From positions 1 to 60,524 of the IMG/VR virus record IMGVR_UViG_3300032156_000008: a stretch of DNA of 60,524 nt; one strand, given 5' to 3'. Origin of the DNA: a virus. Its lineage: Duplodnaviria; Caudoviricetes. This document shows positions 3,492-30,114 of the stretch, one piece after another; within the stretch, counting starts at the first letter, position 1; each line of letters starts with the position of its first letter. The position numbers were made by a program, and so were the translations under genes. The notes below the pieces were generated by a model that worked only from the letters and a program-made list of their open reading frames with translations, was not told where the DNA came from and searched no databases.

Positions 3492-6228
3492 GAGCCGTGT
3501 CCCTCCACCCCGTGAACACCTCGGGGGCGATGTACCTCTGGAGCGCCACGGTCGGGGTATTGCCCAGTCTGGCCGCAACCTCCTTGGCGACGGCCCTCAC
3601 CGACCTCTTGTAGGCCGTCTTGCTCGTGGGCGCCTCCGTGCGGGCGATGATCGACTTGGCGGTCGACGTGCCGAGGTAGGTGCGGAAGTCCTTCGTCTTG
3701 AAGCCCCCGCCGTCGAGGCCGTGGGCGTATTCGGAGAGCTCACTCGGCCCGACGGTGGGGAAGAGCTGCCCGTCGGGTCCGACGGCGCCCGCCCTCTCGA
3801 CGAGCATATCGGCGACGGACTTGTCGCCCACGGGGACGTCGGCGGCGACGCCCTTCTTGCCGACGAACTGGAGGCGGACGCCCGTCTCGGTCTCGACGAC
3901 GTGCCTGCCCTCGAGGGTCGTCGCCCCGTAGGCCCTGACCTCGCCCCTCGTGTCCTTCTCACTACCCGGCCGAATCCCGGTCTCCACGACGAGGGCCATG
4001 AGGTCGGCCCTCTCGCGGAGCTCGGGGTCCTGACGGTCGGCCCGGATCTGGCCGCGGACGCCGTCCATCTTCTCGTCGAGCTCGGAGATCCTCGCGAACT
4101 TCGCCGCCTGCTGCTCCGAGTCGTAGCGCTCGGAGTAGATGTACTGGGTCCGCCCCTTCTTGTCGTGCCCCTTCACGAGGAGATCCCCCTCGGGGTCGGG
4201 GTTGACCACGACGTCCGTCCACGCGGGCGGGATGCCCAGCGACTGGATGTGGGCGGGGGCCGGGGCTCCGTCGGCGGTGACCCACGCCTTGCCCGAGCGC
4301 GTGACGCCCACTGAGGGGCCTCCTCCCGAGGACCACTTGCCGCTCTCGTCGCGGGACATGTCGGGATTGTAGGCCTCGTGACCGGCCTCGAAGACGTGGG
4401 TCTTCTCACTCTTCCACCTCAGCCCCGTCTTGTACTCGAGCCCGCGGGTGGGCGCCCACTCCTTCGTGGCGGCGAGGATCTTCGCGTTGTCGTAGCCTCC
4501 CTCCCCGTGGCCCTTCTCCGCGAGGGCGTATATCTCCTTCTTTGTCGCGGCGAGGAACTTGGGCTTGTCGACGACCTCCATGGTCGCCATCGCCCCGCTC
4601 CTCGTGATCACCGCCATCTTCTCGTAGTAGCCGCGCTCGACCGACTGCTTGAGGCCGTAGATATCGCCCTCGGAGAACGCCGCCGCTGAGTCGGGGTCGT
4701 CCCCGACCTCGCCCGAGTGGCTGTGGACGGAGACGAGGCGCGGCCTCTCCTCGGGCGGGACGCTCTCGAGGTCCTTCCGCGAGTAGATCTTCCCAGACTG
4801 CGGCTCCACGAAGAACTCGGTCGCGGCGGTCGTCTGAGAGCCGAACCCGTGATACAGCCTGCGGGAGTCCTCACCGATCGCTCTGGCGATGCCACCGGCG
4901 AGCGCGCTCCCTCCTGAGGAGAACTTGCCCCTCTCGTCTCGGGACATGTCGGGGTTGAACGCGGGGTGGCCCGGCTGGAACACGCTCTCCTGCGCCGCCC
5001 TGACGACTGGCTTCCCGTCGCACTCGCACTTCGGGTGGACGGGGATCTCGGGGAAGTCGTCGATCGGGTAGATCCCGGGGCCGTAGCCGACGTCGGCCTC
5101 GGCGAGGGCGGCGCAGTCCCCGCAGGCCCTGTCCCCGAGGAGGTACTCCATCAGCTCGACGCCCTCGTCCGCGTATCTCTCCTTCTCTCCGATGTGGACG
5201 AGGCGGGACATCTCCGTCTTGGCGGTCAGCTCGGGGTCGTGCGCCTCCGTGTCGATGACGCCCCGAAGGTCTCTGGCGATCTCGCGGGAGCCCCTGCCCT
5301 CGCGGATGCCCGCCTCGATGGCGTCCACCACGGCCCCTCGGGCCGCGGTCGTTCCGTCTCGGAGCCACGGGGTGAACTCCCCCTGAATCGTCGTGCCGCC
5401 GCGGTTCTCCATGTCGTCGCGATACCTCTGGGCGAAGGCGACGGCCCGAGAGTAGTTCAGCTCCTCATAGTCTGAGCCGAGGCGCACCGCGCCCCTCCTG
5501 TCGCCCGCGAGGTAGGCGTCGATGCCCGCCTTGGCGAGGGTGCGGGCCAGCCCGATCTGGTACTCCTCGAAGGCCATGCCGATCGCCCGCACGGTCTTCG
5601 GGGGGACGAGTCGGCCCGCGTGCGCGTGGTCCCCGAGGACGGAGAGGAGGTCGGAGACGATGCTCGCGCACAGGGCGTGCGAGGACGGGAGCCTCTCGTC
5701 GACGACCCCCATCACGGCGGGGTCGCCCCCAGTCCAGTCGGCGAGCATGCCCGCCTTCATCTCGGGGTGGAACTGGACCGCCATCGCCCTGTCGCGGACC
5801 CAGCCGACCACGCGCCCGCGCCGGTCCCTCCAGACCGCCGTGGCCCCGGGCGGCATCGTGAACGACCAGTCGTGCCACTGAAACACGGAGAACACTCGGC
5901 CCGACGGGTCTCTCACGGAGTCCCACCCATACACTCGATCTCGGACGGTGCGCCCCCCGAGGGCCAGCGAGATCGCCTCGCCCCCGAGGCAGATGCCGAG
6001 GAGCGGCACCCCGAGGGCCACGCAGTCGGTGATGAGCCCCCTCTCGTCGATCGCCCACGGGCGCGTCTCGACGGGCTCCGTGCCTCCCATCAGGATCACG
6101 GCGTCGCCCTGTCGGACGTCGATCGGGAGCTCGCCCTCGTCGGCGCGGACGATGTGGAGGCCGCCCACGAGGTCGGCGATGCGCCCGGGGCCTCCCCCGG
6201 GGGCGTGGGCGACGACGTGGATAGTCAT
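3484..6228 (-). CDS. Multidomain minor head protein: class I glutamine amidotransferase-like + MuF (SPP1 gp7-like) + JAB-like + type IB topoisomerase
   Basis: GICLG/QFHPE (GATase triad); CGDC...HPKCEC (MuF); HSH...FSEGD (JAB-like); KGRTQYIY, GIRPG, FVGKKG, KDFRT, LGNT...RY (TopIB). Lies directly after the portal. Confidence 0.85.
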   Translation of the reverse strand: MTIHVVAHAPGGGPGRIADLVGGLHIVRADEGELPIDVRQGDAVILMGGTEPVETRPWAIDERGLITDCVALGVPLLGICLGGEAISLALGGRTVRDRVYGWDSVRDPSGRVFSVFQWHDWSFTMPPGATAVWRDRRGRVVGWVRDRAMAVQFHPEMKAGMLADWTGGDPAVMGVVDERLPSSHALCASIVSDLLSVLGDHAHAGRLVPPKTVRAIGMAFEEYQIGLARTLAKAGIDAYLAGDRRGAVRLGSDYEELNYSRAVAFAQRYRDDMENRGGTTIQGEFTPWLRDGTTAARGAVVDAIEAGIREGRGSREIARDLRGVIDTEAHDPELTAKTEMSRLVHIGEKERYADEGVELMEYLLGDRACGDCAALAEADVGYGPGIYPIDDFPEIPVHPKCECDGKPVVRAAQESVFQPGHPAFNPDMSRDERGKFSSGGSALAGGIARAIGEDSRRLYHGFGSQTTAATEFFVEPQSGKIYSRKDLESVPPEERPRLVSVHSHSGEVGDDPDSAAAFSEGDIYGLKQSVERGYYEKMAVITRSGAMATMEVVDKPKFLAATKKEIYALAEKGHGEGGYDNAKILAATKEWAPTRGLEYKTGLRWKSEKTHVFEAGHEAYNPDMSRDESGKWSSGGGPSVGVTRSGKAWVTADGAPAPAHIQSLGIPPAWTDVVVNPDPEGDLLVKGHDKKGRTQYIYSERYDSEQQAAKFARISELDEKMDGVRGQIRADRQDPELRERADLMALVVETGIRPGSEKDTRGEVRAYGATTLEGRHVVETETGVRLQFVGKKGVAADVPVGDKSVADMLVERAGAVGPDGQLFPTVGPSELSEYAHGLDGGGFKTKDFRTYLGTSTAKSIIARTEAPTSKTAYKRSVRAVAKEVAARLGNTPTVALQRYIAPEVFTGWRDTAHA

Positions 6229-7970
6229 TTCTTCGTGAGCGCCTCCGACACGTCCGAGTAGAGCCTGTCCCTGAGTCGGGCGATGTCGGCCCGCGTCTCG
6301 GCGATCACGCGCTCCTCGACGGACCCGAGCGCCATCGTCCTGAGGGCGTTCTCCCTCTCGGCCTCGAGCTCGCCGTCGGGCTTCGCGGCGGGGTTCTGGG
6401 CTCCCCCGAGCTGGGGCGGTTCCCCGTCCCTCTTCTCGAACAGGGGCTTGCCGTCGGGGCCGAACTGCCCCTGCGGGGGGACGGGCATGCCCGTCGTCTT
6501 GACCTTGTTCCAGAACTCGGCGTTCTTCAGGAGGTAGGCCTCGACGGCGTCGTCGCCCTCCCCGTAGAGGTCCTCGGGGATGTCGATCTCGAAGTCGAGC
6601 TTCTCGAGGAGCTGGAGCGGGGGCGCCACGCCGGACAGGAGGGCCGTCGCCGCCTGCTTGATGCGGAGATCAGACTTGTCGACCTCGGCGGTCGGGAACT
6701 CGATGATCGCGTAGTAGCCCTCGTAGCCGTTCGCGTCGAGGTAGTACTGGGGGACGCGGCTCCACTCTCGGCTGAGCCACCCGCGCATCGCCTCGACGTA
6801 TGTGTGGTAGAGCCCCGTCGCGCCCACGGAGGAGCCGAGGGTCGACTGGTTCGGCTGGACGCTCTCCTTCGGGCTGAAGTAGTCGACGATGACCTGATTG
6901 AGCGCCTGCACCGTCTGGAGCCCGACGCTCTCGGAGCTCGACGTGTCGCCGAAGTTCACGGTCTCGACGGTCATGTTGGGGCGGAGGACGTAGCGGTTGT
7001 CCTTGCTCGCGTACTGGAGGATGGTGTTCGCGTAGTCGATGTCGCTCACGTAGCCGTTGACGGCGGACGGCCCCTGCGGGTTCTCGACCTTGATGAAGAA
7101 CCACGGCGCCCCCTTGCGGTTGACATACTGCATGTGCGAGTTGATCGAGTAGGTCATCATCTCGCAGAGGGGGATGATGGGCTTGCAGATGGGCTCGCCC
7201 GCGAGCTCGTGGCCGATCGGGTCGCGGAGCCAGAAGAGGGACTCCGAGTCGAGCATCTGCGGGTAGAAGTTGAAGACCGACTGACGCTGCCAGAACTCCA
7301 TCTGGCCCGTGTTCAGGCCCGTCGTGGGATCGCGCGCGAGGGTCACGCCCTGTAGCACGGGGGAGAACACGAGGGGCTGGCCGATCGGTGGGTAGTCGAA
7401 GGAGTGGGCGGGCAGCCTGACGAGGGCCTTCAGGGCGAGCTCGTTCCCCTCCCTCTTCCACTCCCACGAGAAGATGCCCATGCCGTAGCCGAAGACGTCG
7501 GCGAAGGAGAAGCGCATCTTCCTGACGAGGTCCACCCTCGGGTCGACGAACATCATACGGTGCAGCCTGCGCTGGATCTTGGACGCCGTCTGGTCGACCT
7601 CCCCCTCCTCGCTCACGATCTTCAGCCTGATGCGGAGGTCGGGCGTCTCGGAGAAGACCATGTTCATCTGCTTGACGAGGACGCCCTTCATCGCCCAGTG
7701 GTTCAGGAGGTTGTAGATCTTGTGCGCCGTGACCTCCTCGTTCAGCTGGAGCCACGAGACGAAGCTATACTGCGGCAGAAACGACGGGACGTAGTAGACG
7801 CCCTCGAGGCCCGTCTTGCTCGTCGGGGCCAGTGGGCTGGCGTCCGTGTCGCTCATGTTCTGTGGCAGCGCCGTCGTGAACCCCGGCACGTGCGTCGCGG
7901 GGACCATCGCCCTCGCGCTCACCCTCGACGTCAGCCTCGACACGCCGACGTCCCTCTCATCCTTTCTCAT
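6225..7970 (-). CDS. Portal protein
   Basis: 581 aa, between terL and MuF; ADVFGYGMGIFSWEW segment typical of portals. Confidence 0.75.
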   Translation of the reverse strand: MRKDERDVGVSRLTSRVSARAMVPATHVPGFTTALPQNMSDTDASPLAPTSKTGLEGVYYVPSFLPQYSFVSWLQLNEEVTAHKIYNLLNHWAMKGVLVKQMNMVFSETPDLRIRLKIVSEEGEVDQTASKIQRRLHRMMFVDPRVDLVRKMRFSFADVFGYGMGIFSWEWKREGNELALKALVRLPAHSFDYPPIGQPLVFSPVLQGVTLARDPTTGLNTGQMEFWQRQSVFNFYPQMLDSESLFWLRDPIGHELAGEPICKPIIPLCEMMTYSINSHMQYVNRKGAPWFFIKVENPQGPSAVNGYVSDIDYANTILQYASKDNRYVLRPNMTVETVNFGDTSSSESVGLQTVQALNQVIVDYFSPKESVQPNQSTLGSSVGATGLYHTYVEAMRGWLSREWSRVPQYYLDANGYEGYYAIIEFPTAEVDKSDLRIKQAATALLSGVAPPLQLLEKLDFEIDIPEDLYGEGDDAVEAYLLKNAEFWNKVKTTGMPVPPQGQFGPDGKPLFEKRDGEPPQLGGAQNPAAKPDGELEAERENALRTMALGSVEERVIAETRADIARLRDRLYSDVSEALTKK

Positions 7971-11147: not shown

Positions 11148-12146
11148 TCACTTCTTCTTGACGACGGCGGACGCCCCGCCGATCTTGCCACGGATGACGC
11201 CGGCGCCCGCTCTGGGCGTGCCCGGGGGCGCCACGACGATCGGCCCCCTGGCGGGCGCCGCCGCCCCGATCACGACGCCCTTCTTCTGGACGACGGGCCG
11301 CTCGCCCCGAGCGGGGGCACTCGGGGCCTTCTTGGTGCCCTTCCCCTTGCGCTCGGAGCCCTCGCGCCACGTGAACCCACAGGCGTTGCAGTGCCAGATC
11401 TGGCTCTTCGTGCCGTCGGTGGTCGTGTAGGACCCCGACTTGCGGGTGTTGATCTCTCCGCACCGCACGCACGCGGGGTGTTGGTAGTCTCCCTTCTTCG
11501 ATGCCTCGGCGGGCGCCACCGCGGGCGCGCGCCCCTTGCCTGTCTTCTTCGCTGCCATAGTCTGTCCACCCGATCGGGCTCGGGTAGTTTCCCTTTGGGA
11601 GCCATCGGGACTTATACTCTTCTTCTCTCCTTGCGACTTGTCCACCGCGAGCCCGACGGCGAGGACGTGCTTGCACGGCACCCCGCCCCCGTATCTCGTG
11701 AAGTCGTAGCAGTCGCAGGTCAGGGCGACGCCGTCGGGGTTGGTGACGCTGTGCGCCTCCGACCCGGGGGCGCTCTGCACCAGCCACGAGTGCTTCGTGA
11801 CGGCGCTCACGAGCCCCGCCGCGACGATCTTCTGCGCCCTCTCGGCCTTGACCGACTGCCTCTCGGCCATCACGGCCCTCTGCGCGACCTGCTTCTCGGT
11901 CAGTGGCCTGCTCGCCTGCTCGCCGCCGAGGGACTTCTGCCCCGCCAGCGGCACGGAGGTGTCGAGCAGGCTCAGCACCGGCCTCGGCGAGAGGAACGTC
12001 GTCCGTGGCGTGAAGCTGTTCTCGAGGACCCTCTCCAGCCGCTCGGCCGGCACGGGCTCGGGACTTGTCTCGCCCCTCGCCGCCACATCGGCACGGATCT
12101 CCCGCAGCCTCTCGACGGAGACGCCCGTCCTGGACGACTCCGACAT
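11148..12146 (-). CDS. SWIM zinc-finger protein with a C-terminal zinc ribbon and basic tail
   Basis: TCDCYDF...CKHVLAV (SWIM); CVRC...CNAC; Lys/Ala/Pro-rich tail. Start uncertain. Confidence 0.7.
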   Translation of the reverse strand: MSESSRTGVSVERLREIRADVAARGETSPEPVPAERLERVLENSFTPRTTFLSPRPVLSLLDTSVPLAGQKSLGGEQASRPLTEKQVAQRAVMAERQSVKAERAQKIVAAGLVSAVTKHSWLVQSAPGSEAHSVTNPDGVALTCDCYDFTRYGGGVPCKHVLAVGLAVDKSQGEKKSISPDGSQRETTRARSGGQTMAAKKTGKGRAPAVAPAEASKKGDYQHPACVRCGEINTRKSGSYTTTDGTKSQIWHCNACGFTWREGSERKGKGTKKAPSAPARGERPVVQKKGVVIGAAAPARGPIVVAPPGTPRAGAGVIRGKIGGASAVVKKK

Positions 12147-12842
12147 GAGCTCAGTGAGCTCCTCCGCCCTGTTGATACTCTTCTCTGCCACTAGATCAGC
12201 CTCCTGACCAGCCTCGCGAGCGCCGACTCGACGGGCGGGTCGGCCGCTCTCCCGCGTCTCTCTATCTCCCTCTCTATAAGGGTATAGGAGGGGCACAGAA
12301 GCGCGCCCATGCCGCAGTCTCGCGTCATCGCCTGAAGTCCCTCCCCACCGTCGTGCCGCCGCTGAGCGGCCGCCCGGCTATGAACACCTGCGGGGGCTCC
12401 GCCCACTCTAGGTCGGCGTAGGCCGCGGGCGTCGGCCACAGCGGCCCGTCTCGCGCCATTAGTTCATCGCCCCCACGCAGTCCACGATCTCGACGAGGGC
12501 CGAGGCCACCGCCAGACGAGACTCTTCCTCCCATCTGACGGCGAACTCGGCGCAGACGCCGTCGGGCCACTCATCTTGCGGGTCGAGCCCCCTCTCTGCC
12601 GCGAAGCACCGCTGGAACTCGACCAGTCGCCTGAGCAGCCCGATCGCCATCAGCGCCCCCCTCGGAGGCCGGACCTCGAGGGCGAGGCCGACGCCTTGCC
12701 GAGCGTCTTCGCCACGGCGGACCTGTTCGCGCGCAGCCGCCTCGACGCCCACCAGAGGGACGCGAGGAGGACGGCGAGGCACCCGACCGTCAGGGCCAGA
12801 GCGCCGTCGATCCAGTAGTCGCCGACGTAGACGATCATGGTC

Positions 12843-19944: not shown

Positions 19945-20105
19945 CTACGTCAGCCTCGTCTGCTTAGTCTTCTTCCTCGTCGCCCTGACGTGTGGAGGGC
20001 AGTCTACCCCGCCCGGGCAGTCCCTCATGGACGTGCACCTGTCGGGCGCCAGCACGAGGTGCGGGCACGGCCTCTCGACGCGGGCGGACGCCTCCGACTT
20101 GGTGA

Positions 20106-20354
20106 CTACGCCGTTGCCTCTACGAGCCACACGGACCCCCTCGGCGAGCGCTGGGCGCCCACCCAGTGCACGATGCGAACCCCGTCGACGCCACGACTAG
20201 CGAGGCGCGCGACCCTCTGCCCGACCATCTTGTTCGTCATCCTCAGCCTGCGGGCGATAGCGCCCGTCGATATGAAGACCCTCCCCGCCGACGCGGCCTC
20301 CTGCTTCAGGAGGTTCTCGATCAGGAACGACGGATACGGGTCGGCCCTAGCCAT
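20106..20354 (-). CDS. Winged-helix/HTH protein
   Basis: STGAIARRLRMTNKMVGQRVARL. Confidence 0.55.
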   Translation of the reverse strand: MARADPYPSFLIENLLKQEAASAGRVFISTGAIARRLRMTNKMVGQRVARLASRGVDGVRIVHWVGAQRSPRGSVWLVEATA

Positions 20355-21405
20355 ACAGTCTCTCCACAATCCCCTGCGCGTAGTCGTGCCTGAGCTCGAT
20401 CGACACCGAGTTTCGCCCCAGCCTCTTGGCGACGGCCGCCACCGTGCCCGACCCGGCGAATGGGTCGAGGACCCACCCGTCGAGGGGGCAGCTCGACAGG
20501 ATAAGCGGCTCGACGAGGTCCTCGGGGAACGGCGCGACGTGCCCGCCGTAGCTCTTCGACGCGAGGTGGACAGTCCACACGGTGTCTCTCTGCCGTCCCT
20601 TGGGGTCTCCCCAGACGCGCTTCCCCTCGGAGAACTGAGATCCCCCTCTGATGCACCTCGGCTCGCCCCCGGCGTTCCTCACTCGAGGCTTGGTCTTGAG
20701 CGGGATTCTCGTCGCGTCGAGGTCGTAGTAGCACCGGGCGCTCTTCGTGAGCTGGAACACCTGCTCGTGAGCCCTAGTCGGGCGGTCGCGCACGGACTCG
20801 GGCTTGTGGTTCGGCTTGTGCCAGATGTTCTCCGAGCGCAGCCACCACCCGTCGTCCCTGAGCGCGAACGCCGTCATCCAAGGCACGCCTATGAGGTCCT
20901 TGTTCTTCAGCCCCACGACGCGGGTCAGTCGCGAGGAGAATCCCTGACGTCCCTCCTGCCCCTGTATGCCGGTGCGCCCCGACGGACCCTTGCCGCTCCC
21001 GCTGTAGCAGTCTCCGATAACGAGCCACAGGGTGCCCGACGGGCGCAGCGCCCCCCGCACCCCGCGGAAGGCCTCGACGAGCCTCTCCACGTAGGCCTCG
21101 GGGGTGGTCTCGGACCCGACCTCACTGCTCACGAAGACGGCGCCACACTTGGAGCACGACGGAGCAGGGTGAGAGTCCGGGAATCTCGCCTCCTTTGGGT
21201 TGGTCCCGGACCCTCCCCTACCTCTCCTCGACTTAATCGTGTCGTGCTCGCACTCGGGGTCGCCCCCGACCCACTCGCCGATGCCGTAGTTCCTGAGCCC
21301 GTAGTAGGGCGGCGAGGTGATGCAGCAGTCGATGGACTCGTCACCGATCATCGCCAGCCCGTCCATCACATCGCCCTCGATCACGACGTGCTCCGTCTCA
21401 GCCAT
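20347..21405 (-). CDS. DNA N4-cytosine/N6-adenine methyltransferase (beta class)
   Basis: TSPPY, IWHKPN..PESV.DRPT..HE, HVAPFP, LDPFAGSGT. Confidence 0.92.
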   Translation of the reverse strand: MAETEHVVIEGDVMDGLAMIGDESIDCCITSPPYYGLRNYGIGEWVGGDPECEHDTIKSRRGRGGSGTNPKEARFPDSHPAPSCSKCGAVFVSSEVGSETTPEAYVERLVEAFRGVRGALRPSGTLWLVIGDCYSGSGKGPSGRTGIQGQEGRQGFSSRLTRVVGLKNKDLIGVPWMTAFALRDDGWWLRSENIWHKPNHKPESVRDRPTRAHEQVFQLTKSARCYYDLDATRIPLKTKPRVRNAGGEPRCIRGGSQFSEGKRVWGDPKGRQRDTVWTVHLASKSYGGHVAPFPEDLVEPLILSSCPLDGWVLDPFAGSGTVAAVAKRLGRNSVSIELRHDYAQGIVERLYG

Positions 21406-23875
21406 CGTACACCTTCTCCAGCTCGCCCCAGCTCGGCCCCGTCTGAATCTCGACCGAGAACGGGACCTCCGTCTCGAATGGGACGTGATGCATCTTGTTC
21501 ACCGTCAGGTCCCTCGCCTCCCTGACCGCGCCCTCCGGCACCTGAAAGTAGAAGCCGTCGTGCACGTGCGGCCATAGAAGGACCGGGATTCTCCTCGCGT
21601 CCAGCTCGTCGACGACGGCCATATAGGCGAGCAGGGTCATGTCCGAGACGGCGGACTGGACGGGGAAGTTAACCGCCTGACGCTGGATCTCGGCGGCGTG
21701 CCTCCTGTCGATCACCAGAGGGAATCTCCTCTTGCGACCAAAGATGGTCGTGACCTCCCTCTCGCGCATGACGAGGGCGTGCTGCCGGGATATCCACCGC
21801 CTGACGCCGGGCATCATCGAGAAGAAATCCCTCATCATAACCTCCGCCTCCCGCGCCGTCACGCCCATCTGTGGCGCGATCGACTTGGCGCTCCGCCCAT
21901 AGATGAGGCCGAAGGTAATCGTCTTGGCCGCTCTCCTCTTAATCTCGCGCTCCTCGCCGGGCATCGCGTCGAGCTCGTCGTCGGTCAGCCTGAACAGGCG
22001 CTTGGAGATGGCGCGGTGAATGTCGTGCTCTCCGAGGGCGCGAATGAGGGACTTATCGCCGGCGAGGTGCGCGACCATCCGCACCTCCGCCTGACTGTAG
22101 TCTGCCGACACGATGCGGAACCCCGGGTCCGCGACGAAGATGCGCTTGATCTCCTTCCGTCGTGGCATGCCGTGGATGTTGGGGTCGGTCGAGGACAGGC
22201 GCCCCGTCCGCGTGCCGTGCAGTCGATACCGAGGCCGGATTCGGCCCTCGTGGTCCATCAGCCTGACGTAGCCGTCGTGGTAGGCGCCATACTGCTTGGC
22301 CAGCAGCCTGTGGCGCACCATCATCCTCGGGAACTCGTGCTGCTGGGCGAGCCACCACAGCATATACGTCCCCGTTGAGTGATCGCTGAGTCGCTTCGCC
22401 TGCGCCGTCCGCCAGAACTCCTGCGCGTCCTCGTCGGCGATATCGGCGGTCAGTACCGCCACCACGTCGGGGGCGATCACCCCGTCCGCCGCCGCCCCGG
22501 GCATCGGCGCGAGCCCGAGGGTATCGTAGAGGAACTCACGGACCTGCTTCGACGAGCGGAGGTTCAGGCCCTCGGCGCCGGGGTAGGCGTGCAGCCCCTC
22601 CTCGATCTGAAGGATCTCCGCCATCCACCTCTTGCCCGCGTCCTTGAGGTAGTCGGCATCGACGAGCATGCCGTCCCTCTCGAAGCGGATGAACAGTCTC
22701 GCCGCGGGCAGTAGGATGCGATCGTGGACCGCCGTCACGCCCTCCTCCTCCATGGCCTCTCGCAGGAGGAACTTCAGTCGGTGCGTGTAGTAGGCATCGG
22801 CCCCGTTGTAGCGCATAACGGTGTCGCGGAAGTCGGGGTCGTCGCGCCACTGCTCGACGGTGAGCTCCAGAGGGAGCTTCCTCCCGTCCTCGTCGGTGCG
22901 TCTGAGTTCGGCGTCATATTCGGGGGCCGCGAAGGCCGCGGTCGCGAGCTTCTTCAGCCCGTGGCTTCCTCTCCTCTCGTCGACGCAGTAGTGGGCCAGC
23001 ATGGTGTCGAAGACGAGGCCGGCCGGGACTCCGTTGGCCCACAGCCACCCGAGATCAAACTGGCAGTTGTGGAACACGCCCTCGCAGCCGTCCATCGCGC
23101 CCGCGACTAGTCCGCGCATCCGCTCGTCGGCCCACACCCAGTCGAGGACCATGACCTGATCGGGCTCTGGCCCCTCGCCCCACGCGAACGCGGACGACAG
23201 GATGGAGCCCTCGTCGGGGTGCAGTCCCTCCGTCTCGAGGTCGATGGAGACCTCTCCGCCCTCCTTCAGTCGAGCCAGCAGGGCGCGGAACGTCGGCTTG
23301 CTGCGGACCATGACGAACTGATCGTAGGGCGGCTCGACGACGGGCTCGACGCCCCCCGCCGATATGCGCTGGGCGAGGGCCACGTCGTTGACGAGGTCCC
23401 TGAATCCGTCCGGAGCCCGCAGGATGCCCGCGGGGTGCAGGCTGGGGACGACGCCGCACACCTCGGTCTCGACGTATATCCCGCGTCTCTTTGTGATCCC
23501 CGTCGCGCCACCGAGGAGGGAGTTTAGGGCCGTGTTCCCGAGGGCCATGATAACCCTCGGCTGGACGGTCTCCAGCTCCTCTATTAGCCTACTGTGGCAG
23601 GCGTTGACCTCATTCCTCTTCGGCGTCCTGTTGCCCGGCGGGCGGCACAGGCAGGCGTTGGTGTAGTAGACGCGGGACGTGTCCACCCCGAGCCCCGATA
23701 GGATCTCGCGCAGGAGGCGGCCGGCGCGCCCGACGAACGGCTCGCCCTGCTCCAGCTCCTCCAGCCCCGGGGCCTCTCCGACGAAGGCGATGTCGGGCCT
23801 GCGACTGCACCCGCTCGGCGGAACGAGCTTCGCCCTGTCGAGGGTGCAGCTATCGCAGTCCCCACACGTAGTCAT
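21398..23875 (-). CDS. polA: Family A DNA polymerase with an N-terminal family-4 uracil-DNA-glycosylase domain and 3'-5' exonuclease
   Basis: GEAPG, PFVGRAG, CRPPGNR, HPA (UDG4); DLET, HN..FD, YN..D (exo); TGRLSS, ADYSQAEVR, RRAAKTITFGLIYG, VHD. Start at ATG 23875 after GGAGGTGG. Confidence 0.95.
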   Translation of the reverse strand: MTTCGDCDSCTLDRAKLVPPSGCSRRPDIAFVGEAPGLEELEQGEPFVGRAGRLLREILSGLGVDTSRVYYTNACLCRPPGNRTPKRNEVNACHSRLIEELETVQPRVIMALGNTALNSLLGGATGITKRRGIYVETEVCGVVPSLHPAGILRAPDGFRDLVNDVALAQRISAGGVEPVVEPPYDQFVMVRSKPTFRALLARLKEGGEVSIDLETEGLHPDEGSILSSAFAWGEGPEPDQVMVLDWVWADERMRGLVAGAMDGCEGVFHNCQFDLGWLWANGVPAGLVFDTMLAHYCVDERRGSHGLKKLATAAFAAPEYDAELRRTDEDGRKLPLELTVEQWRDDPDFRDTVMRYNGADAYYTHRLKFLLREAMEEEGVTAVHDRILLPAARLFIRFERDGMLVDADYLKDAGKRWMAEILQIEEGLHAYPGAEGLNLRSSKQVREFLYDTLGLAPMPGAAADGVIAPDVVAVLTADIADEDAQEFWRTAQAKRLSDHSTGTYMLWWLAQQHEFPRMMVRHRLLAKQYGAYHDGYVRLMDHEGRIRPRYRLHGTRTGRLSSTDPNIHGMPRRKEIKRIFVADPGFRIVSADYSQAEVRMVAHLAGDKSLIRALGEHDIHRAISKRLFRLTDDELDAMPGEEREIKRRAAKTITFGLIYGRSAKSIAPQMGVTAREAEVMMRDFFSMMPGVRRWISRQHALVMREREVTTIFGRKRRFPLVIDRRHAAEIQRQAVNFPVQSAVSDMTLLAYMAVVDELDARRIPVLLWPHVHDGFYFQVPEGAVREARDLTVNKMHHVPFETEVPFSVEIQTGPSWGELEKVYDG

Positions 23876-24923
23876 AGTAGTCTCCACCTCCCAGTGTGCG
23901 CAGAGCTCCCCTTTGGACGCCATCGGATATGAGCCTGACGGGCACGCCGAGCCACGAGTGGATCTTCTCGGCGAGCTCGGACCAGTGGCACGACGTCGTG
24001 CGCCCCGTGCAGTCCACGAACGGGACCGAGCTGAGGTGCTCGGCGATGTCCATGTGAGTCACGGCGATCGAGTCGACGCCGTTCACCCAGCAGGCGCGAT
24101 GGATGGCTCGGAGGTCGAGGATACCGATGCGCCTCGGGCGCCCCGTCGTCGTGCCATACTCGTGGCCCTCCTCGCGAATATAGTTCTCGACGGCTGGCGC
24201 GAACGACTGGGTGAACGGCCCCGCGCCTATCCTCGTCGAGTAGGGCTTCATGACGCCCACGACGTGCCGAATCTTCCTCGGGTCGAACCCGCCGCCCGTG
24301 CCGACGGCGCCGATGCCGCACGACGACGACGTCACGTATGGGTAGGCTCCGTGGTCGATGTCGAGCTCGAATCCGTGGGCGATCTCGAACAGGATGCGAA
24401 ACCTCGCCTCGTGCTTCGACAACGCCATGAACGTCACGTCGACCATCCGCGCCCTCAGGGGTCCGTCCTCTGTACCCTCGAACCTGACGCCCACCCTGCG
24501 AGACTTATCCGCGTAGGCGGGACCATTGCCAGTCTTGGTCGTCCCGATCGCGAACTCTCCTCTGGCTCTCTCGGCGATGGCGTCCTCCTCTTTGTGGCGA
24601 GGGAGGATGAGATGAGCCGCTCTGTCTATGAAGAGCCTCTCCATGACATTGACCCCGAGGGCCTCGGCGTCTGCGATCTCCTTCTTCAGCTTCTCGACGT
24701 CGATCACCGCGCCCGGGCCGATGGCGAGGAGTGCCTTGGTGAAGACACCCGACGGGAGCTGGTGCACGGCGAAGGACCCTCCGCCCTCGAGCGGGATGGT
24801 GTGCCCGGCGTTCGCCCCGCCGTTCACCCTGACGACCATGTCCGCCTCCTGCGCCAGCCAGTCGACGACGCGGCCCTTGCCCTCGTCGCCCCACTGGAGC
24901 CCCATGACCGCGATCGCCGTCAC
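23850..24923 (-). CDS. purA: Adenylosuccinate synthetase-family protein (short PurA, variant)
   Basis: QWGDEGKG, NAGHT, IGTT..G.GPAY, LDIDHG.YPYVTS, TTGRPRRIG; EGAQG motif altered to EIAHG. Confidence 0.9.
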   Translation of the reverse strand: MTAIAVMGLQWGDEGKGRVVDWLAQEADMVVRVNGGANAGHTIPLEGGGSFAVHQLPSGVFTKALLAIGPGAVIDVEKLKKEIADAEALGVNVMERLFIDRAAHLILPRHKEEDAIAERARGEFAIGTTKTGNGPAYADKSRRVGVRFEGTEDGPLRARMVDVTFMALSKHEARFRILFEIAHGFELDIDHGAYPYVTSSSCGIGAVGTGGGFDPRKIRHVVGVMKPYSTRIGAGPFTQSFAPAVENYIREEGHEYGTTTGRPRRIGILDLRAIHRACWVNGVDSIAVTHMDIAEHLSSVPFVDCTGRTTSCHWSELAEKIHSWLGVPVRLISDGVQRGALRTLGGGDYYDYVWGLR

Positions 24924-25720
24924 TCGTAGGCCCCCCGGGCGACCACGGCCTTCCATCGTCTGAGGTTCGTCGCGAGTCTGTCCGCCCTCCAGAACCCGAC
25001 CGGCCCACCCTCCCCGGCCCTCTGCACCCTGACGTCCATCGGGGGGTCGAAGTCGAGGTCCACCCTCGGTCGCGGCGCCTCCCCGAGGACCAGCCCGGCC
25101 TGCGTGTATATGGCGGCGATGCCCGAGTCGCAGCCCCGTATGCGCCCGGGCAGTCTCTGCTCCGTCCGCCAGATCTCCGTCGGGTCGCTACCCAACACCC
25201 CGAGGAGGTGGAGATCGAGGTCGCTGTCGACGAGACCCGGGACGTTCTCGATGGCGTCGGCGCGACAGGCGACCTTGCCCTCGAGGAACTTGGTGATGCC
25301 CATCGCCGTGACTCCGTCCGTCACCTCCGCGGCCCTCAGCATGTGGGAGGCGCAGGAGATCCACTCCTCGAGGGTCTCTCCCTGCGGGATGGCCATCGTC
25401 TCGAACCCCGTGGACTTGTCCCACTGACTAACCGCCGAGCGGAACAGGGCGAGGGTCGCCCGCCTGTCGTTGATCGAGTCGGGCAGGCAGACCTGAGTCG
25501 GGTGGACGGCATCGGCGAGCGCGAACAGCTCCGCAGTCGGCTTGGCGAACCCGGTCTCGACGACGCCGTTGTCCATGAGGACGAAGTGCCCCATCTGCGC
25601 CTGAGCGACGAAGAAGTCTCGGTAGGCTCGGTGGTGCAGGAGGTGCGCGAGGCACATGTGGTAGTCGTCGCTGCCCACCAGAGGCAGGAACGGTATCGGC
25701 AGGATGGTGGCTACTCTCAT
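24920..25720 (-). CDS. TGT/DpdA-like TIM-barrel protein (putative 7-deazaguanine transglycosylase)
   Basis: LMDNGVVE, CLPD, AIPQG, LHLLG and RGCDS motifs resemble the TGT/DpdA fold; located in the que cluster. Confidence 0.65.
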   Translation of the reverse strand: MRVATILPIPFLPLVGSDDYHMCLAHLLHHRAYRDFFVAQAQMGHFVLMDNGVVETGFAKPTAELFALADAVHPTQVCLPDSINDRRATLALFRSAVSQWDKSTGFETMAIPQGETLEEWISCASHMLRAAEVTDGVTAMGITKFLEGKVACRADAIENVPGLVDSDLDLHLLGVLGSDPTEIWRTEQRLPGRIRGCDSGIAAIYTQAGLVLGEAPRPRVDLDFDPPMDVRVQRAGEGGPVGFWRADRLATNLRRWKAVVARGAYE

Positions 25721-27423
25721 ACGCCGCACGCCTCGCAGTAGACGCCCTCGCCCGACTTGTCCCGATACGCGGTGACGCCCTTGCACCCCTCGTCGTAGGC
25801 GAGGCGATAGATGATCTCGAAGTCCTCTGGCGTCGCCGCCTCGGGGAGGTTCACGGTCTTCGACACCGACGCGTCGACGAAGGCCTGAATCGCCGCCTGC
25901 ACGGAGACGTGCTCGAACGGCGTGACCTCCTTGGCCGAGACGAAGGCCGACGCGTGGGCCAGCGGGTGCTCCACGACGTGGCACCCGGTCGCGTCGGTCC
26001 TCGTGTATTTGGCCGCGAAGATCGGCTCGATGCCGCTCGACGCGCCCGCGAGGGTGCTGGTAGTCCCCGTGGGTGCCTGCGTCAGCAGGGTGAGATTGCG
26101 GATGCCATATTCGGCGATGGCGTTGCGGACGTACTCGGGCAGCGTCTGAGCGAACCCCGAGTCGAGGAGCTGGGGCGTGTACCCGGGCGCCGGCCCGAGC
26201 TCCTCGGCGAGGGACGCGCTCTTCATATACGCGGTGTCCCGTATGAACTCGTAGAGGTCGCCGATGAAGTCGATACTGCGCGAAGACCCATATCTGATGC
26301 CGTGCAGGATGAGTACGTCGGCGAGGCCCATCGTGCCGAGGCCCACCCGCCTGCACGCCGCCTGCTCCGCCGTTATGCGTGCGTCGACCGGGGCGCTCAC
26401 GTCGACGATGCGGTCGAGGAACTCGACGGCGTCGCCCACGCAGTCGCGCAGCGCCTCCTTGTCGAGCGCCCCCGCGGGCTCGTCCCAGAAGGCGGTGAGG
26501 TTGACGGCTCCGAGGTTGCAGCAGCCGTCCTCGGGCAGGGGCTGCTCCCCGCACGGATTGGTCCCGACGATGCGCCCGCGATACCACGTGTTCGACGCCC
26601 TGTGGCAGCGATCCATGAAGACGACCCCCGGGCTCCCGATGGCGTGCGCCGACTCGGCCATGTCCGCCCACATCATCGACGCGGGCAGGCAGTCGTGCTC
26701 CTCGACGTCGCCGCTCCAGACGTGGTTTCCACCGCACCAGTCGCGGTTGTAGTTCGGGTCGTCGGTCCTCGGAAAGATGGTGTGCCAGTCGCGCCCGGCC
26801 GCGAGCGCCCCCATGAAGGCGTCGGAGATACCGAGGGAGAAGTTGGCCCTCAGAAATCTCGCGCGGGTCCGCGCGAAGTCGGGCGCGTCGGGGTGCCAGT
26901 CGTCGAGCATGAACATGAGGGCCGCCGTCCTCGAGCCGCCCTGACGGATCTGGTTGGACAGGGCGTCGGCCCCGCGCATCCAGCCGTTCGGCCCGGTCGA
27001 GTTGCCGTCGACGCCGCGAATGTAGGCGCCGGCCGGCCTGAGGGCGGACCAGTTGATGCCCACGCCGCCCCCTCTGGCGTTGATCTCCACCATCCTCGTC
27101 ATCATCCGCATGATCGCCACTCTGCTGTCGCACCCGTGGTGGCCCGTCGGGTCGCGGGGGCCGATGACGAAGCAGTTATAGAGGGTGGCCGACGCCTTGC
27201 CCCCGGCCCCGGCCAGTATGCGCCCACCGGGGACGAAGGCGAACTCCCCCATCCAGTCGGAGAACCTGCCGGCCTGCTCGGGGTCGCGGGCCACCGCGTT
27301 GCAGACGCGGGCCACGGTCTCCCCGTAAGAGGTCTCGAGCTCGCGCCCGTCTGGTCTCTTTAGCGCGTATCGGTCGAGGAAGACCTTGTGGCGATGCCCG
27401 TCGTACTCGAAGATCTGGTGCAT
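25717..27423 (-). CDS. nrdJ: Ribonucleotide reductase, class II (B12-dependent)
   Basis: PGGRIL, NCFV, GGGVG, TNPCGEQPL, CNLG, GLG.MG, APTGT, SKTVN; no beta subunit seen. Confidence 0.9.
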   Translation of the reverse strand: MHQIFEYDGHRHKVFLDRYALKRPDGRELETSYGETVARVCNAVARDPEQAGRFSDWMGEFAFVPGGRILAGAGGKASATLYNCFVIGPRDPTGHHGCDSRVAIMRMMTRMVEINARGGGVGINWSALRPAGAYIRGVDGNSTGPNGWMRGADALSNQIRQGGSRTAALMFMLDDWHPDAPDFARTRARFLRANFSLGISDAFMGALAAGRDWHTIFPRTDDPNYNRDWCGGNHVWSGDVEEHDCLPASMMWADMAESAHAIGSPGVVFMDRCHRASNTWYRGRIVGTNPCGEQPLPEDGCCNLGAVNLTAFWDEPAGALDKEALRDCVGDAVEFLDRIVDVSAPVDARITAEQAACRRVGLGTMGLADVLILHGIRYGSSRSIDFIGDLYEFIRDTAYMKSASLAEELGPAPGYTPQLLDSGFAQTLPEYVRNAIAEYGIRNLTLLTQAPTGTTSTLAGASSGIEPIFAAKYTRTDATGCHVVEHPLAHASAFVSAKEVTPFEHVSVQAAIQAFVDASVSKTVNLPEAATPEDFEIIYRLAYDEGCKGVTAYRDKSGEGVYCEACGV

Positions 27424-28340
27424 CAGCGATACCCCTTGTCCCACATCGTGCGGGCGAGGTCCGCCACCATCATCGCCCTGTTCGCCACGTCGGCGGCCTC
27501 GGCGATCACGGCGTCTCGCTTCTCGGCCGTGGCGGGGCCGTCGATGAATCTTCGGACGGCGTCTCCGAGCTCGCGATACTCGGCGTCCACCTCGCCGAGG
27601 AGGACGTTCAGCCCCTCCCCGAGCCACCCGCCCTTCGAGGCTCTGGCGAGCAGCTTCGTCTCCATGTGGCCGTAGAACCAGAGGAGCGTACCCCTGTCGA
27701 TCGCGAACTGCGGGTATCTCCACCTGACCGGGAGCCCGAGCCGCCACGCCAGACGGATCTCCTCCGACGTGCTATGCCCGACGTAGCCGTCGACGTTCAC
27801 GACGTAGATAGAATCGCTCATGCGTATCTTCGCCTTGTGGAGTGCGTCGAAGGCGGCCTTCTCGGCGGCGTCGGGCGCCCACTCCTCGGCGTGCGGAAAT
27901 CCACCGACGGAGAGGACTGCCTTGCCCTCCCTCTCCAGCTGGAGTATGGCCTGCTCCGTCGCGGCCTTGAATCTCGTCGAGCCGCACACGGTCACGACCT
28001 CGGGCCTGCTGGCCTCCCCTCTGGTGACCATCGCCCCGTGGCGGTCGTCCTCGTTGACGGTCACGGCGTCGGCCCTCGGCGTCGAGTCGAGGATGGCGAG
28101 GGCGATGCTCTCGCAGGACATGTCGCCGAACTCGCCGAACGGCGCCATCGCGTCGAGGGCCGCGTCGAGCTCCTCTCTCAGGCTGTGCAGCTCGATCTCT
28201 CTCTCAGGGCCTCCGACGCTGACGGCTATGCCGACCTCGAACTCGTGGTGGTGGCGCTCCCTGAGGTATGACCTCGTGTCGGGCGCCCCGGGCCAGCGGT
28301 GGAACCCGTCCTTCTTCGTGGATACCTGTAGTCTAATCAT
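27423..28340 (-). CDS. Three-domain fusion: QueD-like (DpdL-like) T-fold + nucleoside 2-deoxyribosyltransferase-like + MazG-like
   Basis: GFHRWPGAP..YLRERHHHEF...REIE...MSCE...EDD..GA; then VCGSTRF...HKAKIRMSD...GYVGHST..EI; then METKL...EVDAEYREL...EAADVAN.AMM. Confidence 0.7.
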   Translation of the reverse strand: MIRLQVSTKKDGFHRWPGAPDTRSYLRERHHHEFEVGIAVSVGGPEREIELHSLREELDAALDAMAPFGEFGDMSCESIALAILDSTPRADAVTVNEDDRHGAMVTRGEASRPEVVTVCGSTRFKAATEQAILQLEREGKAVLSVGGFPHAEEWAPDAAEKAAFDALHKAKIRMSDSIYVVNVDGYVGHSTSEEIRLAWRLGLPVRWRYPQFAIDRGTLLWFYGHMETKLLARASKGGWLGEGLNVLLGEVDAEYRELGDAVRRFIDGPATAEKRDAVIAEAADVANRAMMVADLARTMWDKGYR

Positions 28341-28924
28341 CTCTTCACTCCCTCCTCGATCAGTCGGAGGAACTCCGCCCTCGTCTTCGGATCGTCCTTG
28401 AAGAGGCCGCGCATGGCGCTGGTCACCGTCTTGGACCCCGGCTTGTTCACGCCGCGCATGGTCATGCACGTGTGCTCGGCGGCGAGGATGACCCCGACGC
28501 CCCTCGGCTTGACGTGCTCCATGAACGCGTCCGCGATATCGCTCGTCATTCTCTCCTGAAGCTGGAGTCTCCTCGCGTAGCACTCGATCAGTCGGGGGAT
28601 CTTGCTGATACCGAGTATCTTGCCGTCCGGGATGTAGCCGACGTGAGCCGTCCCGATTATCGGCAGCATGTGGTGCTCGCACATCGAGAAGAACGGGACG
28701 TGCCCGACGACGACCATCTCGTCGCTCCCAGACTTGAATGCCCTCCCGAGGATAGTGGACGGGCTCTGCTCGTAGCCGCGATACAGTTCGCGCATGGACC
28801 TCGCCACTCGGTCGGGCGTGTTCCGCCTCGCCTCCTCGTCGATGCCGTCGATCGAGATGGTCATGAGGAGCTCGACGATCAGCTCCCTGACCCTCGCATC
28901 TCTCTCAGACGCCACGGCGGTCAC
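28337..28924 (-). CDS. folE: GTP cyclohydrolase I
   Basis: TPDRVAR, CEHH, GISKIPR, RLQLQE, HTCM..RG. Confidence 0.97.
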   Translation of the reverse strand: MTAVASERDARVRELIVELLMTISIDGIDEEARRNTPDRVARSMRELYRGYEQSPSTILGRAFKSGSDEMVVVGHVPFFSMCEHHMLPIIGTAHVGYIPDGKILGISKIPRLIECYARRLQLQERMTSDIADAFMEHVKPRGVGVILAAEHTCMTMRGVNKPGSKTVTSAMRGLFKDDPKTRAEFLRLIEEGVKR

Positions 28925-29576
28925 CCCATATCAGTCTGTGCAGCTGGGGCAGGAACCTGACGCCCCGCCCCCACTCGGGGTCGGACGCGACGTGCTCGGC
29001 GAGGTTCGCCAGCCCGTATGGGTAGAGGGACTTGGCGCAGTCGTAACCCGGCTGGATGGTCATCGGCACGTCGGGGAACTGCTTGTGCAGCGCCTTCGCC
29101 AGCCTGTAGTCTGCCCCGTCGAACACGACGTATTTCAGCTGGACGTCGGCCAGCATCTGCGTGTCGTTCACGGCCGCGACCGCCGCCGCGAGGTCGGCCT
29201 CGAAGGCTATCTTCGGGCAGATGGTCACGAGGACTACGTCGCGGAGCCAGTAGGGGACGACCGTGCCCTGTGTCTCCACGTGGACCTCGCGCCCCCTGAG
29301 CTTCAGCTCGTGGACGAGCTCCCCGCAGTCGTGGATGCACGGGTTGCCGCCCGTCAGGACGACGATCTTGGCGTGGGCCAGCGCCTCGACCGCGGACACG
29401 ATCTCCGCGGCGGTCATCCTGTGACCCCCGCCCCTCGCGTACTTGGTGTCGCACCATACGCAGTCTGAGTCGCACCCAACGGTGCGGACGAAGACCGCGC
29501 GCCGCCCGACGTGGATGCCCTCGCCCTGAAGGGTCGGGCCGAAGATCTCCGAGATCGGTATCGTCGAGTCCATCAC
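28905..29576 (-). CDS. queE: 7-carboxy-7-deazaguanine synthase (radical SAM)
   Basis: EIFGPTLQGEG, FVR..GCDSDCVWCDT, TGGNP, VETQG, PQLH. Confidence 0.95.
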   Translation of the reverse strand: MMDSTIPISEIFGPTLQGEGIHVGRRAVFVRTVGCDSDCVWCDTKYARGGGHRMTAAEIVSAVEALAHAKIVVLTGGNPCIHDCGELVHELKLRGREVHVETQGTVVPYWLRDVVLVTICPKIAFEADLAAAVAAVNDTQMLADVQLKYVVFDGADYRLAKALHKQFPDVPMTIQPGYDCAKSLYPYGLANLAEHVASDPEWGRGVRFLPQLHRLIWGDRRGV

Positions 29577-29929
29577 GACCACGCCTCCGCGAAGGAGTCC
29601 GCCGTCTCGTACAGCCTGATGCTCACCAGCTGAAGCCCGAGGGGGAGGGCGGAGATAATCTCGTCGGCGAACACCTCGACGAGGTTCTCCGCCGTCGGCC
29701 TCGTGTTCGGGAACATGTCGTTCAGGACCTTGTGGTCGACTCTGTCGAGGACGGCCCTCTGGACCATGACGTCGAAGTCGCCGAAGTCGAGCACCATCCC
29801 GTTCGGCTTGGCCTGCCCGCGGATGCGGACCTCCATCCTGTAGGTGTGCCCGTGCATCCCGGCGCACTTGCCCGGGTGGTCGGGGAGGAAGTGGGCCGCG
29901 TCGAAAGTAAACACCTTGCCGATGATCAC
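29573..29929 (-). CDS. queD: 6-carboxy-5,6,7,8-tetrahydropterin synthase
   Basis: FDAAH, CAGMHGHTY, GMVLDF, DH..LN, PTAENL, YET. Confidence 0.95.
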   Translation of the reverse strand: MIIGKVFTFDAAHFLPDHPGKCAGMHGHTYRMEVRIRGQAKPNGMVLDFGDFDVMVQRAVLDRVDHKVLNDMFPNTRPTAENLVEVFADEIISALPLGLQLVSIRLYETADSFAEAWS

Positions 29930-30114
29930 GCGCCCCGCCCCCTCGTCTCGAACGCCTCGACGGCCTCGGGCCGCACCCGCCACTGCCTCTTGATCTTGAA
30001 GCCCTCGAGCCTCTTCTCACGGAGGAGGGCGTGGACCGTGTGGACGCTGACGCCCAGCTCGGTCGCCACCTCCGCCGACGTGAGCGCCTTCTCGCGCTCC
30101 TTCTTCTCGTTCAT
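29926..30114 (-). CDS. Excisionase/MerR-like HTH DNA-binding protein
   Basis: LTSAEVATELGVS..TV...L.GFKI..QWRV. Confidence 0.85.
   Translation of the reverse strand: MNEKKEREKALTSAEVATELGVSVHTVHALLREKRLEGFKIKRQWRVRPEAVEAFETRGRGA

Follow-up and report, generated by a model that had tools for sequence, protein, structure and literature searches.

The DNA stretch analysed here, referred to as the window, is the uncultured tailed-phage record IMGVR_UViG_3300032156_000008 (60,524 bases; complete virus record by the CheckV estimate; approximately 66% GC), in which every gene lies on the minus strand. It encodes an adenylosuccinate synthetase (PurA) homologue that carries unusual residues at three positions, among them His in place of a Gln that is nearly universal in the family. 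The gene and the codons under discussion are the following.

23850-24923, minus strand: PurA-like adenylosuccinate synthetase homologue, 357 amino acids (aa), GTG start; PF00709 336 bits, cut-off 27
24885-24887, minus strand: Asp13 codon GAC of GDEGKG (Ser in PurZ and PurZ0)
24801-24803, minus strand: His41 codon (NAGHT)
24525-24527, minus strand: Asn133 codon AAT in GNGPAY, at the E. coli Ile133 position (HMMER alignment)
24375-24377, minus strand: His183 codon CAC in EIAHG, at the E. coli Gln224 position (HMMER alignment)
24054-24056, minus strand: His290 codon in THMD, at the E. coli Lys331 position
24048-24050, minus strand: Asp292 codon in THMD, E. coli Asp333, retained

The GTG at 24923 is most likely the start codon; it overlaps the upstream stop (GTGA) and matches relatives beginning MTAIAVMGLQWGDEGKG. 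The HMMER alignment to E. coli PurA (PDB 1ade and others) places EIAHG against EGAQG, TKTGNGPAY against TGRGIGPAY and THMD against TKLD; together with the codon reading for His183, it bears out a sequence-only reading of this DNA, which had described these three replacements and the retention of the Asp of GDEGKG and of TTGRxRR. The aspartate/ribose loop is kept as TTGRPRR, with Thr260, Arg262 and Arg264 (the E. coli loop comprises Thr300, Thr301, Arg303 and Arg305). The three changes are not noise, because Asn, His and TH.D are common to all 18 closest among the relatives listed (P0002-P0019, two of which are fragments without the N-terminus), and because, over 24169-24562 and 23978-24157, which span all three changed codons, the window matches contigs from another sediment metagenome (run X2) without a single difference. 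The sequencing runs listed for this DNA have it at contig level, and none of them is an RNA run. In 47 aligned His-type sequences, D13, E14, K16, N38, H41, G127, R143, T260, G261, R262, R264 and D292 are invariant, and T128 and T129 almost so. About 45 residues of the helical subdomain are gone from the window protein and retained by its closest relatives. We take Gln224 of E. coli PurA to contact O6 and N7 of inosine monophosphate (IMP); our literature search found no passage on this contact. The equivalent residue of S-2L PurZ, Gln190, lines the base pocket (PMC8342488).

By sequence and by predicted fold, the protein belongs with PurA. The P-loop GDEGKG with catalytic Asp13 and Lys16, as well as His41 in NAGHT, are all present; the match to E. 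coli PurA has an E-value of 8e-66 and those to bacterial PurA structures range from 1e-66 to 1e-71, and the matches to PurZ and PurZ0 rank last among the family structures (3e-26 to 1e-12). An AlphaFold2 (AF2) model, for which 47 relatives were used, has high confidence over its whole length, with a predicted local distance difference test (pLDDT) of 92.5, a predicted template modelling (TM) score of 0.92 and no stretch below pLDDT 50; in a Foldseek comparison with this model, the query-normalised TM scores are 0.86-0.90 to ligand-bound PurA structures vs 0.76-0.79 to PurZ and PurZ0. The guanine-specificity motif (S/T)KxD reads THMD, that is, the Asp is retained and the Lys is replaced by His.

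The residues named for the 2-amino group in PurZ are S14, F12 and T262 (bioRxiv 10.1101/2025.10.22.683976), and the Ser that the sequence-only reading had ascribed to PurZ at the Asp13 position is indeed reported for 147/147 phage PurZ and PurZ0 sequences (PMC12884076); the window protein reads QWGDEGKG, with Trp11 where PurZ has Phe. Its STRIGAGPF and TTGRPRR segments align to PurA without the loop insertion that, in PurZ, follows a conserved Val and is described along with the loss of an Arg303-type contact to the 2'-OH (PMC8342488). According to the same source, S-2L PurZ differs at the Trp, TTGR and STRIG places yet itself keeps Gln at the Gln224 position, which our alignment confirms. The NCBIfam PurZ model NF038379 gives 143.4 against a cut-off of 300, the DatZ family (PF12917), the dATP-removing companion of PurZ, has no match in the window genome, and the adjoining DNA polymerase (PolA) resembles PolAs of unrelated phages that are fused to uracil-DNA glycosylase (UDG) domains (26-29%), not the polymerases of Z-genome phages. 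The sole PHROG match of the protein is phrog_1211, annotated PurZ. With Asp13 retained, PurA-like TTGRPRR and STRIG loop, a low PurZ score and a fold nearer PurA, an identity as PurZ or PurZ0 is ruled out; the alignment with PurA, PurZ and PurZ0 that the sequence-only reading had proposed thus sets the window protein apart from the latter two.

The variant residues are also found outside viruses. A DNA pattern for AHGxxLDxDxGxYP, run against one genome per prokaryote species, detects His at the Gln224 position in at least 120 cellular species genomes; all of the matches listed lie in PurA open reading frames, mostly of 420-438 aa, and the lineages among them include Binataceae, Gaiellaceae, Armatimonadota, Myxococcota, Patescibacteria, Chloroflexota, Planctomycetes and Thermoplasmata. 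In each of the eight genomes checked (G002, G003, G005 and G006-G010), the only PF00709 gene carries the His. GNGPAY accompanies the His in three among the 120 matches listed (G006-G008), all of them sole PurAs; G006 is an unpublished genome, so the case for Asn with His in cells is made on G007 and G008. His at the Lys331 position is found in eight among the 120 matches listed, including two complete Armatimonadota chromosomes, and the combination of both His residues in the sole PurAs of G002, G003, G009 and G010. These cellular variants are scattered over several separate places in the trees, and the changes therefore arose repeatedly. Overall, the His is rare: all 78 recognisable PurAs among the metagenome matches listed carry Ile and Gln, two further loci there having been left unparsed. 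Our assembled set, in which relatives of the query are over-represented, contains 46 sequences that pair Asn with His and one that pairs it with Gln; a His-type metagenomic protein, P0020, has a best viral match of only 33%. Monophyly of all His-type sequences was set aside, given that it appears in one FastTree tree (Shimodaira-Hasegawa-like support 0.884), and another tree with three more sequences splits them into two clusters. We infer from these comparisons that His183, Asn133 and His290 represent an alternative active-site solution that evolved in housekeeping PurAs too and is no proof of a new substrate. The sequence-only reading had taken the Gln-to-His change as a sign of possible tuning to a nucleotide that lacks N7; with at least 120 cellular species genomes carrying the His, and as the sole PurA in 8/8 checked, that step is not supported, and the His is not diagnostic of such a substrate, for which it is a weak argument.

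The surroundings of the gene are those of a 7-deazaguanine DNA modification module. It runs from QueD through QueE, FolE, a 305-aa fusion protein, ribonucleotide reductase (RNR), a 266-aa protein and PurA to PolA, the start of each gene overlapping the stop of the one before.

29573-29983, minus strand: QueD, 6-carboxytetrahydropterin synthase; PF01242 108.6 bits, TIGR03367 94.4 bits, over cut-off
28905-29573, minus strand: QueE, 7-carboxy-7-deazaguanine synthase; TIGR03365 181 bits, under the cut-off of 206; Radical_SAM
28337-28924, minus strand: GTP cyclohydrolase I (FolE); PF01227 233 bits, NCBIfam FolE models over cut-off
27423-28340, minus strand: fusion of a DpdL-like T-fold domain, DUF4406 (NDT-like) and a MazG-like domain, 305 aa
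25717-27423, minus strand: RNR large chain; PF02867 328 bits
24920-25720, minus strand: DpdA3-family transglycosylase homologue, 266 aa, the stop overlapping the PurA start; tblastn
21398-23923, minus strand: family-A DNA polymerase with an N-terminal UDG-superfamily domain and a 3'-5' exonuclease; PF00476, PF03167, PF01612
33567-35090, minus strand: FAD-dependent oxidoreductase; Rossmann/FAD Pfam matches, Atlas look-alikes PF21688 and PF07992

The 266-aa protein has no Pfam match; it matches CGPG_00065 of Cellulophaga phage phiST (tblastn 2e-10) and gp056 of phage CP220, which define DpdA3, a subfamily associated with the replacement of all G (PMC10516641), and it contains the invariant DNG, PD, HLLG and DS motifs. 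The N-terminus of the fusion protein matches phiST CGPG_00067 (blastp 1e-12) and includes LRERHHHEF, which corresponds to the LxxxHxHxF motif of that protein, termed DpdL, a predicted decarboxylase of 7-carboxy-7-deazaguanine (CDG) (PMC10516641). The DUF4406 domain was recognised by an Atlas structure match, and the C-terminus matches the MazG-like ORF of a related phage, L163 (7e-12); the orthologue in another relative, L329, matches PRA-PH and MazG, and the window copy has no direct Pfam match. In relatives, these domains are partitioned otherwise: L163 and L329 encode MazG apart from a DpdL-DUF4406 protein, and L324 has DpdL on its own. By analogy to the DutZ-DmtZ pair of PurZ0 phages (PMC12884076), the fusion protein could convert dGTP to dGMP and exchange the guanine of the nucleotide for 7-deazaguanine. 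The FAD oxidoreductase is retained in 5/5 related phage records at 42-59% identity, and none was found in cultured phages. The window genome has no QueC and, complete as it is, yields no match for GMP reductase/IMP dehydrogenase (PF00478), the lyase family (PF00206) or phosphoribosyltransferase (PF00156); QueC and GMP reductase are likewise found in none of the five related records, one of which is a complete genome. With homologues of DpdA3, DpdL, FolE, QueD and QueE present and QueC absent, the phage is predicted to make 7-deazaguanine DNA as phiST does. The PolA ATG at 23923, if used, gives a 74-base overlap with the 3' end of the PurA gene, and an N6/N4 DNA methylase (20347-21498) comes after PolA.

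Seven close viral loci retain the gene order, and 6/6 of those with upstream sequence hold the full set. A scan of all IMG/VR with the His pattern returned 14 stretches, of which one is a chance match outside PurA and 13 are real PurA loci, all in one phage supergroup that comprises the window clade, L159/L160/L163, L321 and L323, the last a complete 51-kb genome. PolA directly follows PurA in 13/13 of these loci, DpdA3 precedes it in 11/11 with upstream sequence, and DpdL is found in all four His-type lineages. In contrast, none of 71 Gln-type viral PurA loci has DpdA3, FolE, QueD or QueE within 8 kb. The sequence-only reading had asked whether the His variant co-occurs with que genes; among viral contigs it does, the His type being confined there to loci with 7-deazaguanine genes. 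A scan for DpdA3 yielded 28 loci, 12 in the supergroup with PurA and 16 others without it (the alignment used was narrow, one that included phiST and CP220 being too divergent), and in 12 of those 16, PolA directly follows DpdA3. Neither phiST nor CP220, the two studied DpdA3 phages, has a PF00709 gene. With 16 loci and both of these phages lacking it, PurA therefore does not belong to the DpdA3 system as such but is one lineage's addition.

One member of the supergroup, L329, encodes a PurA that has Gln and nests among the His-type sequences; there, a transporter of the Vut_1 (YhhQ) type and a QueF-like protein (6055-7045 and 11268-12473) replace FolE, QueD and QueE, and DpdL, MazG, RNR, DpdA3 and PolA are retained. 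The replacement suggests that this phage takes up a 7-deazaguanine precursor and does not synthesise it. A separate viral family of 326-329 aa PurA homologues, at 17 loci (L199, L202, L204, L205, L211-L214, L216-L218, L221-L225 and L227), combines GNGPCY with EGAQG, that is, Asn with Gln, and NKMD, and has no 7-deazaguanine genes within 8 kb. Among cultured phages, no near-identical DNA to 20000-30000 was found, the best protein matches are cellular-type PurAs at 37-41%, and there is no close relative of the window PurA. The literature search, which did not extend to supplementary data, found no link of a PurA homologue to phage 7-deazaguanine modules, no description of a module enlarged in this way and no report of natural 7-deazaadenine in phage DNA.

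The explanation that we favour, with middling confidence, is canonical PurA chemistry on IMP by a compact, phage-lineage adenylosuccinate synthetase. The window protein retains the catalytic residues Asp13, Lys16 and His41, the 5'-phosphate ligands Asn38, Thr128/129 and Arg143, the TTGRPRR loop and the guanine-specifying Asp; the pocket is of the ribonucleotide and guanine type. With GTP, the enzyme would phosphorylate a 6-oxopurine ribonucleotide, most likely IMP, at O6 and add L-aspartate at C6 to yield adenylosuccinate, which host PurB would then turn into adenosine monophosphate (AMP). The phage, for its part, would build 7-deazaguanine from GTP via FolE, QueD, QueE and DpdL, and DpdA3 would put it into the DNA. 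The role of PurA in such a phage might, speculatively, be the management of the purine pool, with IMP, including guanine recycled to IMP, drawn towards AMP while GTP is spent. Canonical use of IMP is favoured because every unusual residue recurs in sole cellular PurAs and because the ToyG-type reductase, transferase and lyase were not found in the phage. Moreover, ordinary PurA and PurB have been proposed, albeit not shown, to handle a 7-deaza-IMP analogue in tubercidin synthesis (PMC6112128); therefore, a special residue is not needed even for that substrate.

Several observations weigh against canonical chemistry. There is no obvious need for extra IMP-to-AMP flux in a phage that consumes GTP. 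The DpdA3-PurA-PolA placement is retained across four or five lineages in which PurA is 37-39% and PolA 41-51% identical to that of the window and GC ranges from 46 to 70%, and in IMG/VR the His type is limited to the supergroup with the deazaguanine module. The aspartate loops read GTNTKRPRR in L323 and IGVHIHRPRR in L329, which is odd for a strictly canonical enzyme. Finally, the window PurA misses all five NCBIfam PurA equivalog cut-offs (NF002223, 325.8 < 402; TIGR00184, 303.8 < 395.55; NF003295, 201.5 < 368, among them). The sequence-only verdict that the protein is neither ordinary PurA nor PurZ accordingly stands in part: PurZ it is not, and it falls below every PurA equivalog cut-off, but its unusual residues are those of some cellular genomes' only PurA.

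The alternative closest to that verdict, which we regard as unlikely, is an enzyme akin to ToyG or to the PurA of tubercidin synthesis that would aminate a 7-deaza-IMP-type ribonucleotide derived from the phage's own 7-deazaguanine, with host PurB, kinases and the RNR of the phage leading on to 7-deaza-dATP. The full consequence, namely that the supergroup, with host PurB and phage RNR and PolA acting on such a substrate, replaces both adenine and guanine by 7-deaza bases, purines without N7, seems to us improbable. Several points speak for this chemistry: PurA is translationally coupled to, and embedded in, a module that halts at CDG or 7-deazaguanine, it is flanked by RNR and a dedicated PolA, the His type is confined to that module among viral contigs, PurA has long been retained there, and extra AMP synthesis meets no obvious need in a GTP-spending phage. 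A PF00709 enzyme for chemistry of this kind is indeed encoded in toyocamycin clusters (bioRxiv 10.64898/2026.04.15.718813), and the changed residue lies in the purine base pocket, a placement that PMC8342488 partly backs. Nevertheless, the window genome encodes no GMP-reductase-type enzyme to remove the 2-amino group, no phosphoribosyltransferase and no lyase, and GMP reductase is missing from the five relatives; the His, the Asn with His and the two His together all occur in sole cellular PurAs; L329, with the same module, has Gln; phiST and CP220 fully replace G without PurA; and no DatZ-family enzyme that would exclude dATP was found in the genome. The Gln of L329, the DpdA3 loci without PurA and the missing partner enzymes also count against the proposed tuning to a nucleotide without N7.

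It is far less probable that the enzyme acts like PurZ, condensing aspartate with dGMP or 7-deaza-dGMP and thus starting the route by which 2-aminoadenine, or a 7-deaza version of it, is made for the phage DNA. The PHROG annotation points that way, and so does a neighbourhood that resembles Z clusters in kind, with a PurA homologue, MazG-like and NDT-like domains, PolA and PrimPol; NDT-like DmtZ and Dut-like enzymes accompany PurZ0 (PMC12884076). Against it stand the retained Asp13, where the 147 phage sequences have Ser (PMC12884076), Trp11 for the Phe of PurZ, PurA-like TTGRPRR and STRIGAGPF without the PurZ insertion, the guanine-specifying Asp, the low score with the PurZ model, the poor rank of PurZ structures in fold and sequence matching, the missing DatZ gene and the origin of the best phage PolA matches, which are not from Z-genome phages. 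Hardly more probable, though rated slightly higher, is some other chemistry or none, with aspartate ligated to a different acceptor or the protein being a regulatory or decaying copy. One such acceptor would be the carboxyl of a 7-carboxy-7-deazaguanine nucleotide, the carboxylate becoming an amide via host PurB. How DpdA3 phages that lack QueC turn CDG into the amide ADG is described as unsolved (PMC10516641). Other chemistry or decay is also favoured by the altered aspartate loop in L323 and L329 and by the loss of the approximately 45 helical-subdomain residues from the window protein. The invariance of catalytic and ligand residues over 47 sequences and the AF2 model, with its uniform confidence, argue against these readings, however; in addition, CP220, the ADG phage, has no PurA, and the module contains DpdL, which is predicted to remove the very carboxyl group in question.

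Set beside characterised systems, the window PurA has the fold of E. coli PurA (PDB 1ade/1cg0 series; query-normalised TM score 0.87-0.90; 32% identity in the structural alignment); the catalytic, IMP-phosphate, ribose and aspartate-loop residues are conserved without exception, as is the guanine-specifying Asp. It differs in length, 357 vs 431 aa, with two segments gone (the bulk of the helical subdomain that follows Arg143, and the insertion that follows TKLD), in the replacements Gln224 to His, Ile133 to Asn and Lys331 to His, and in an additional C-terminal tail that ends in WGL. The short archaeal PurA of Pyrococcus horikoshii (PDB 5k7x/2d7u) is similarly compact (TM score 0.84 by query and 0.89 by target) but less similar in sequence than bacterial PurA (2e-44 vs 1e-66 to 1e-71). 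Like PurZ and PurZ0 (S-2L 7odx, phiVC8 6fm1 and Archimedes 7vf6), the window PurA is a short phage PF00709 enzyme encoded beside nucleotide-pool enzymes and a DNA polymerase; unlike them, it has Asp13 instead of Ser, the PurA-type TTGR loop and the TKxD Asp, at 22-24% identity and TM scores of 0.76-0.79. The ToyG clusters and the tubercidin PurA similarly combine a PF00709 enzyme with FolE, QueD and QueE genes; the toyocamycin clusters additionally carry GMP reductase, lyase, phosphoribosyltransferase, haloacid dehalogenase (HAD) phosphatase and QueC-type steps, and of these extras, GMP reductase, lyase, phosphoribosyltransferase and QueC were not found in the window, the HAD phosphatase not having been searched for. 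The 7-deazaguanine module of phiST has the same order, QueD, QueE, FolE, MazG-like, DpdL, DpdA3 and polymerase, with DpdA3 and DpdL homologous to those of the window; it lacks the PurA, RNR and FAD oxidoreductase that the window has, and its DpdL, unlike the window's, is not fused to DUF4406 and the MazG-like domain. In Campylobacter phage CP220, at L309 3868-6361, the genes on either side of DpdA3 encode an HD-domain/P-loop protein and a thymidylate-kinase-like protein, and thus nucleotide enzymes adjoin DpdA3 there too.

If the enzyme is canonical, Gln224-to-His, often with Ile133-to-Asn, is a recurrent and viable variant of the PurA active site, and reasoning on N7 recognition from a single residue is unsafe; if it is not, the locus represents a purine branch that is new to phage DNA modification. 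In both cases, these loci define an uncultured phage supergroup with GC of 46-70%, in which a phiST-like 7-deazaguanine module is enlarged by PurA, RNR, the FAD enzyme and the DpdL-NDT-MazG fusion.

Two further observations concern other proteins. Elsewhere in the window, a 1061-aa protein (3484-6669, minus strand) unites three parts, namely a class-I glutamine amidotransferase domain, a head domain of the Mu-F-like type and the catalytic core of a type IB topoisomerase. Among cellular genomes, a metagenome-assembled genome labelled delta proteobacterium contains, besides an ordinary PurA, a 361-codon open frame (L142, G004:C1:2438812-2439690) whose GSEGKG has Ser where PurA has Asp13, along with further PurZ-like features.

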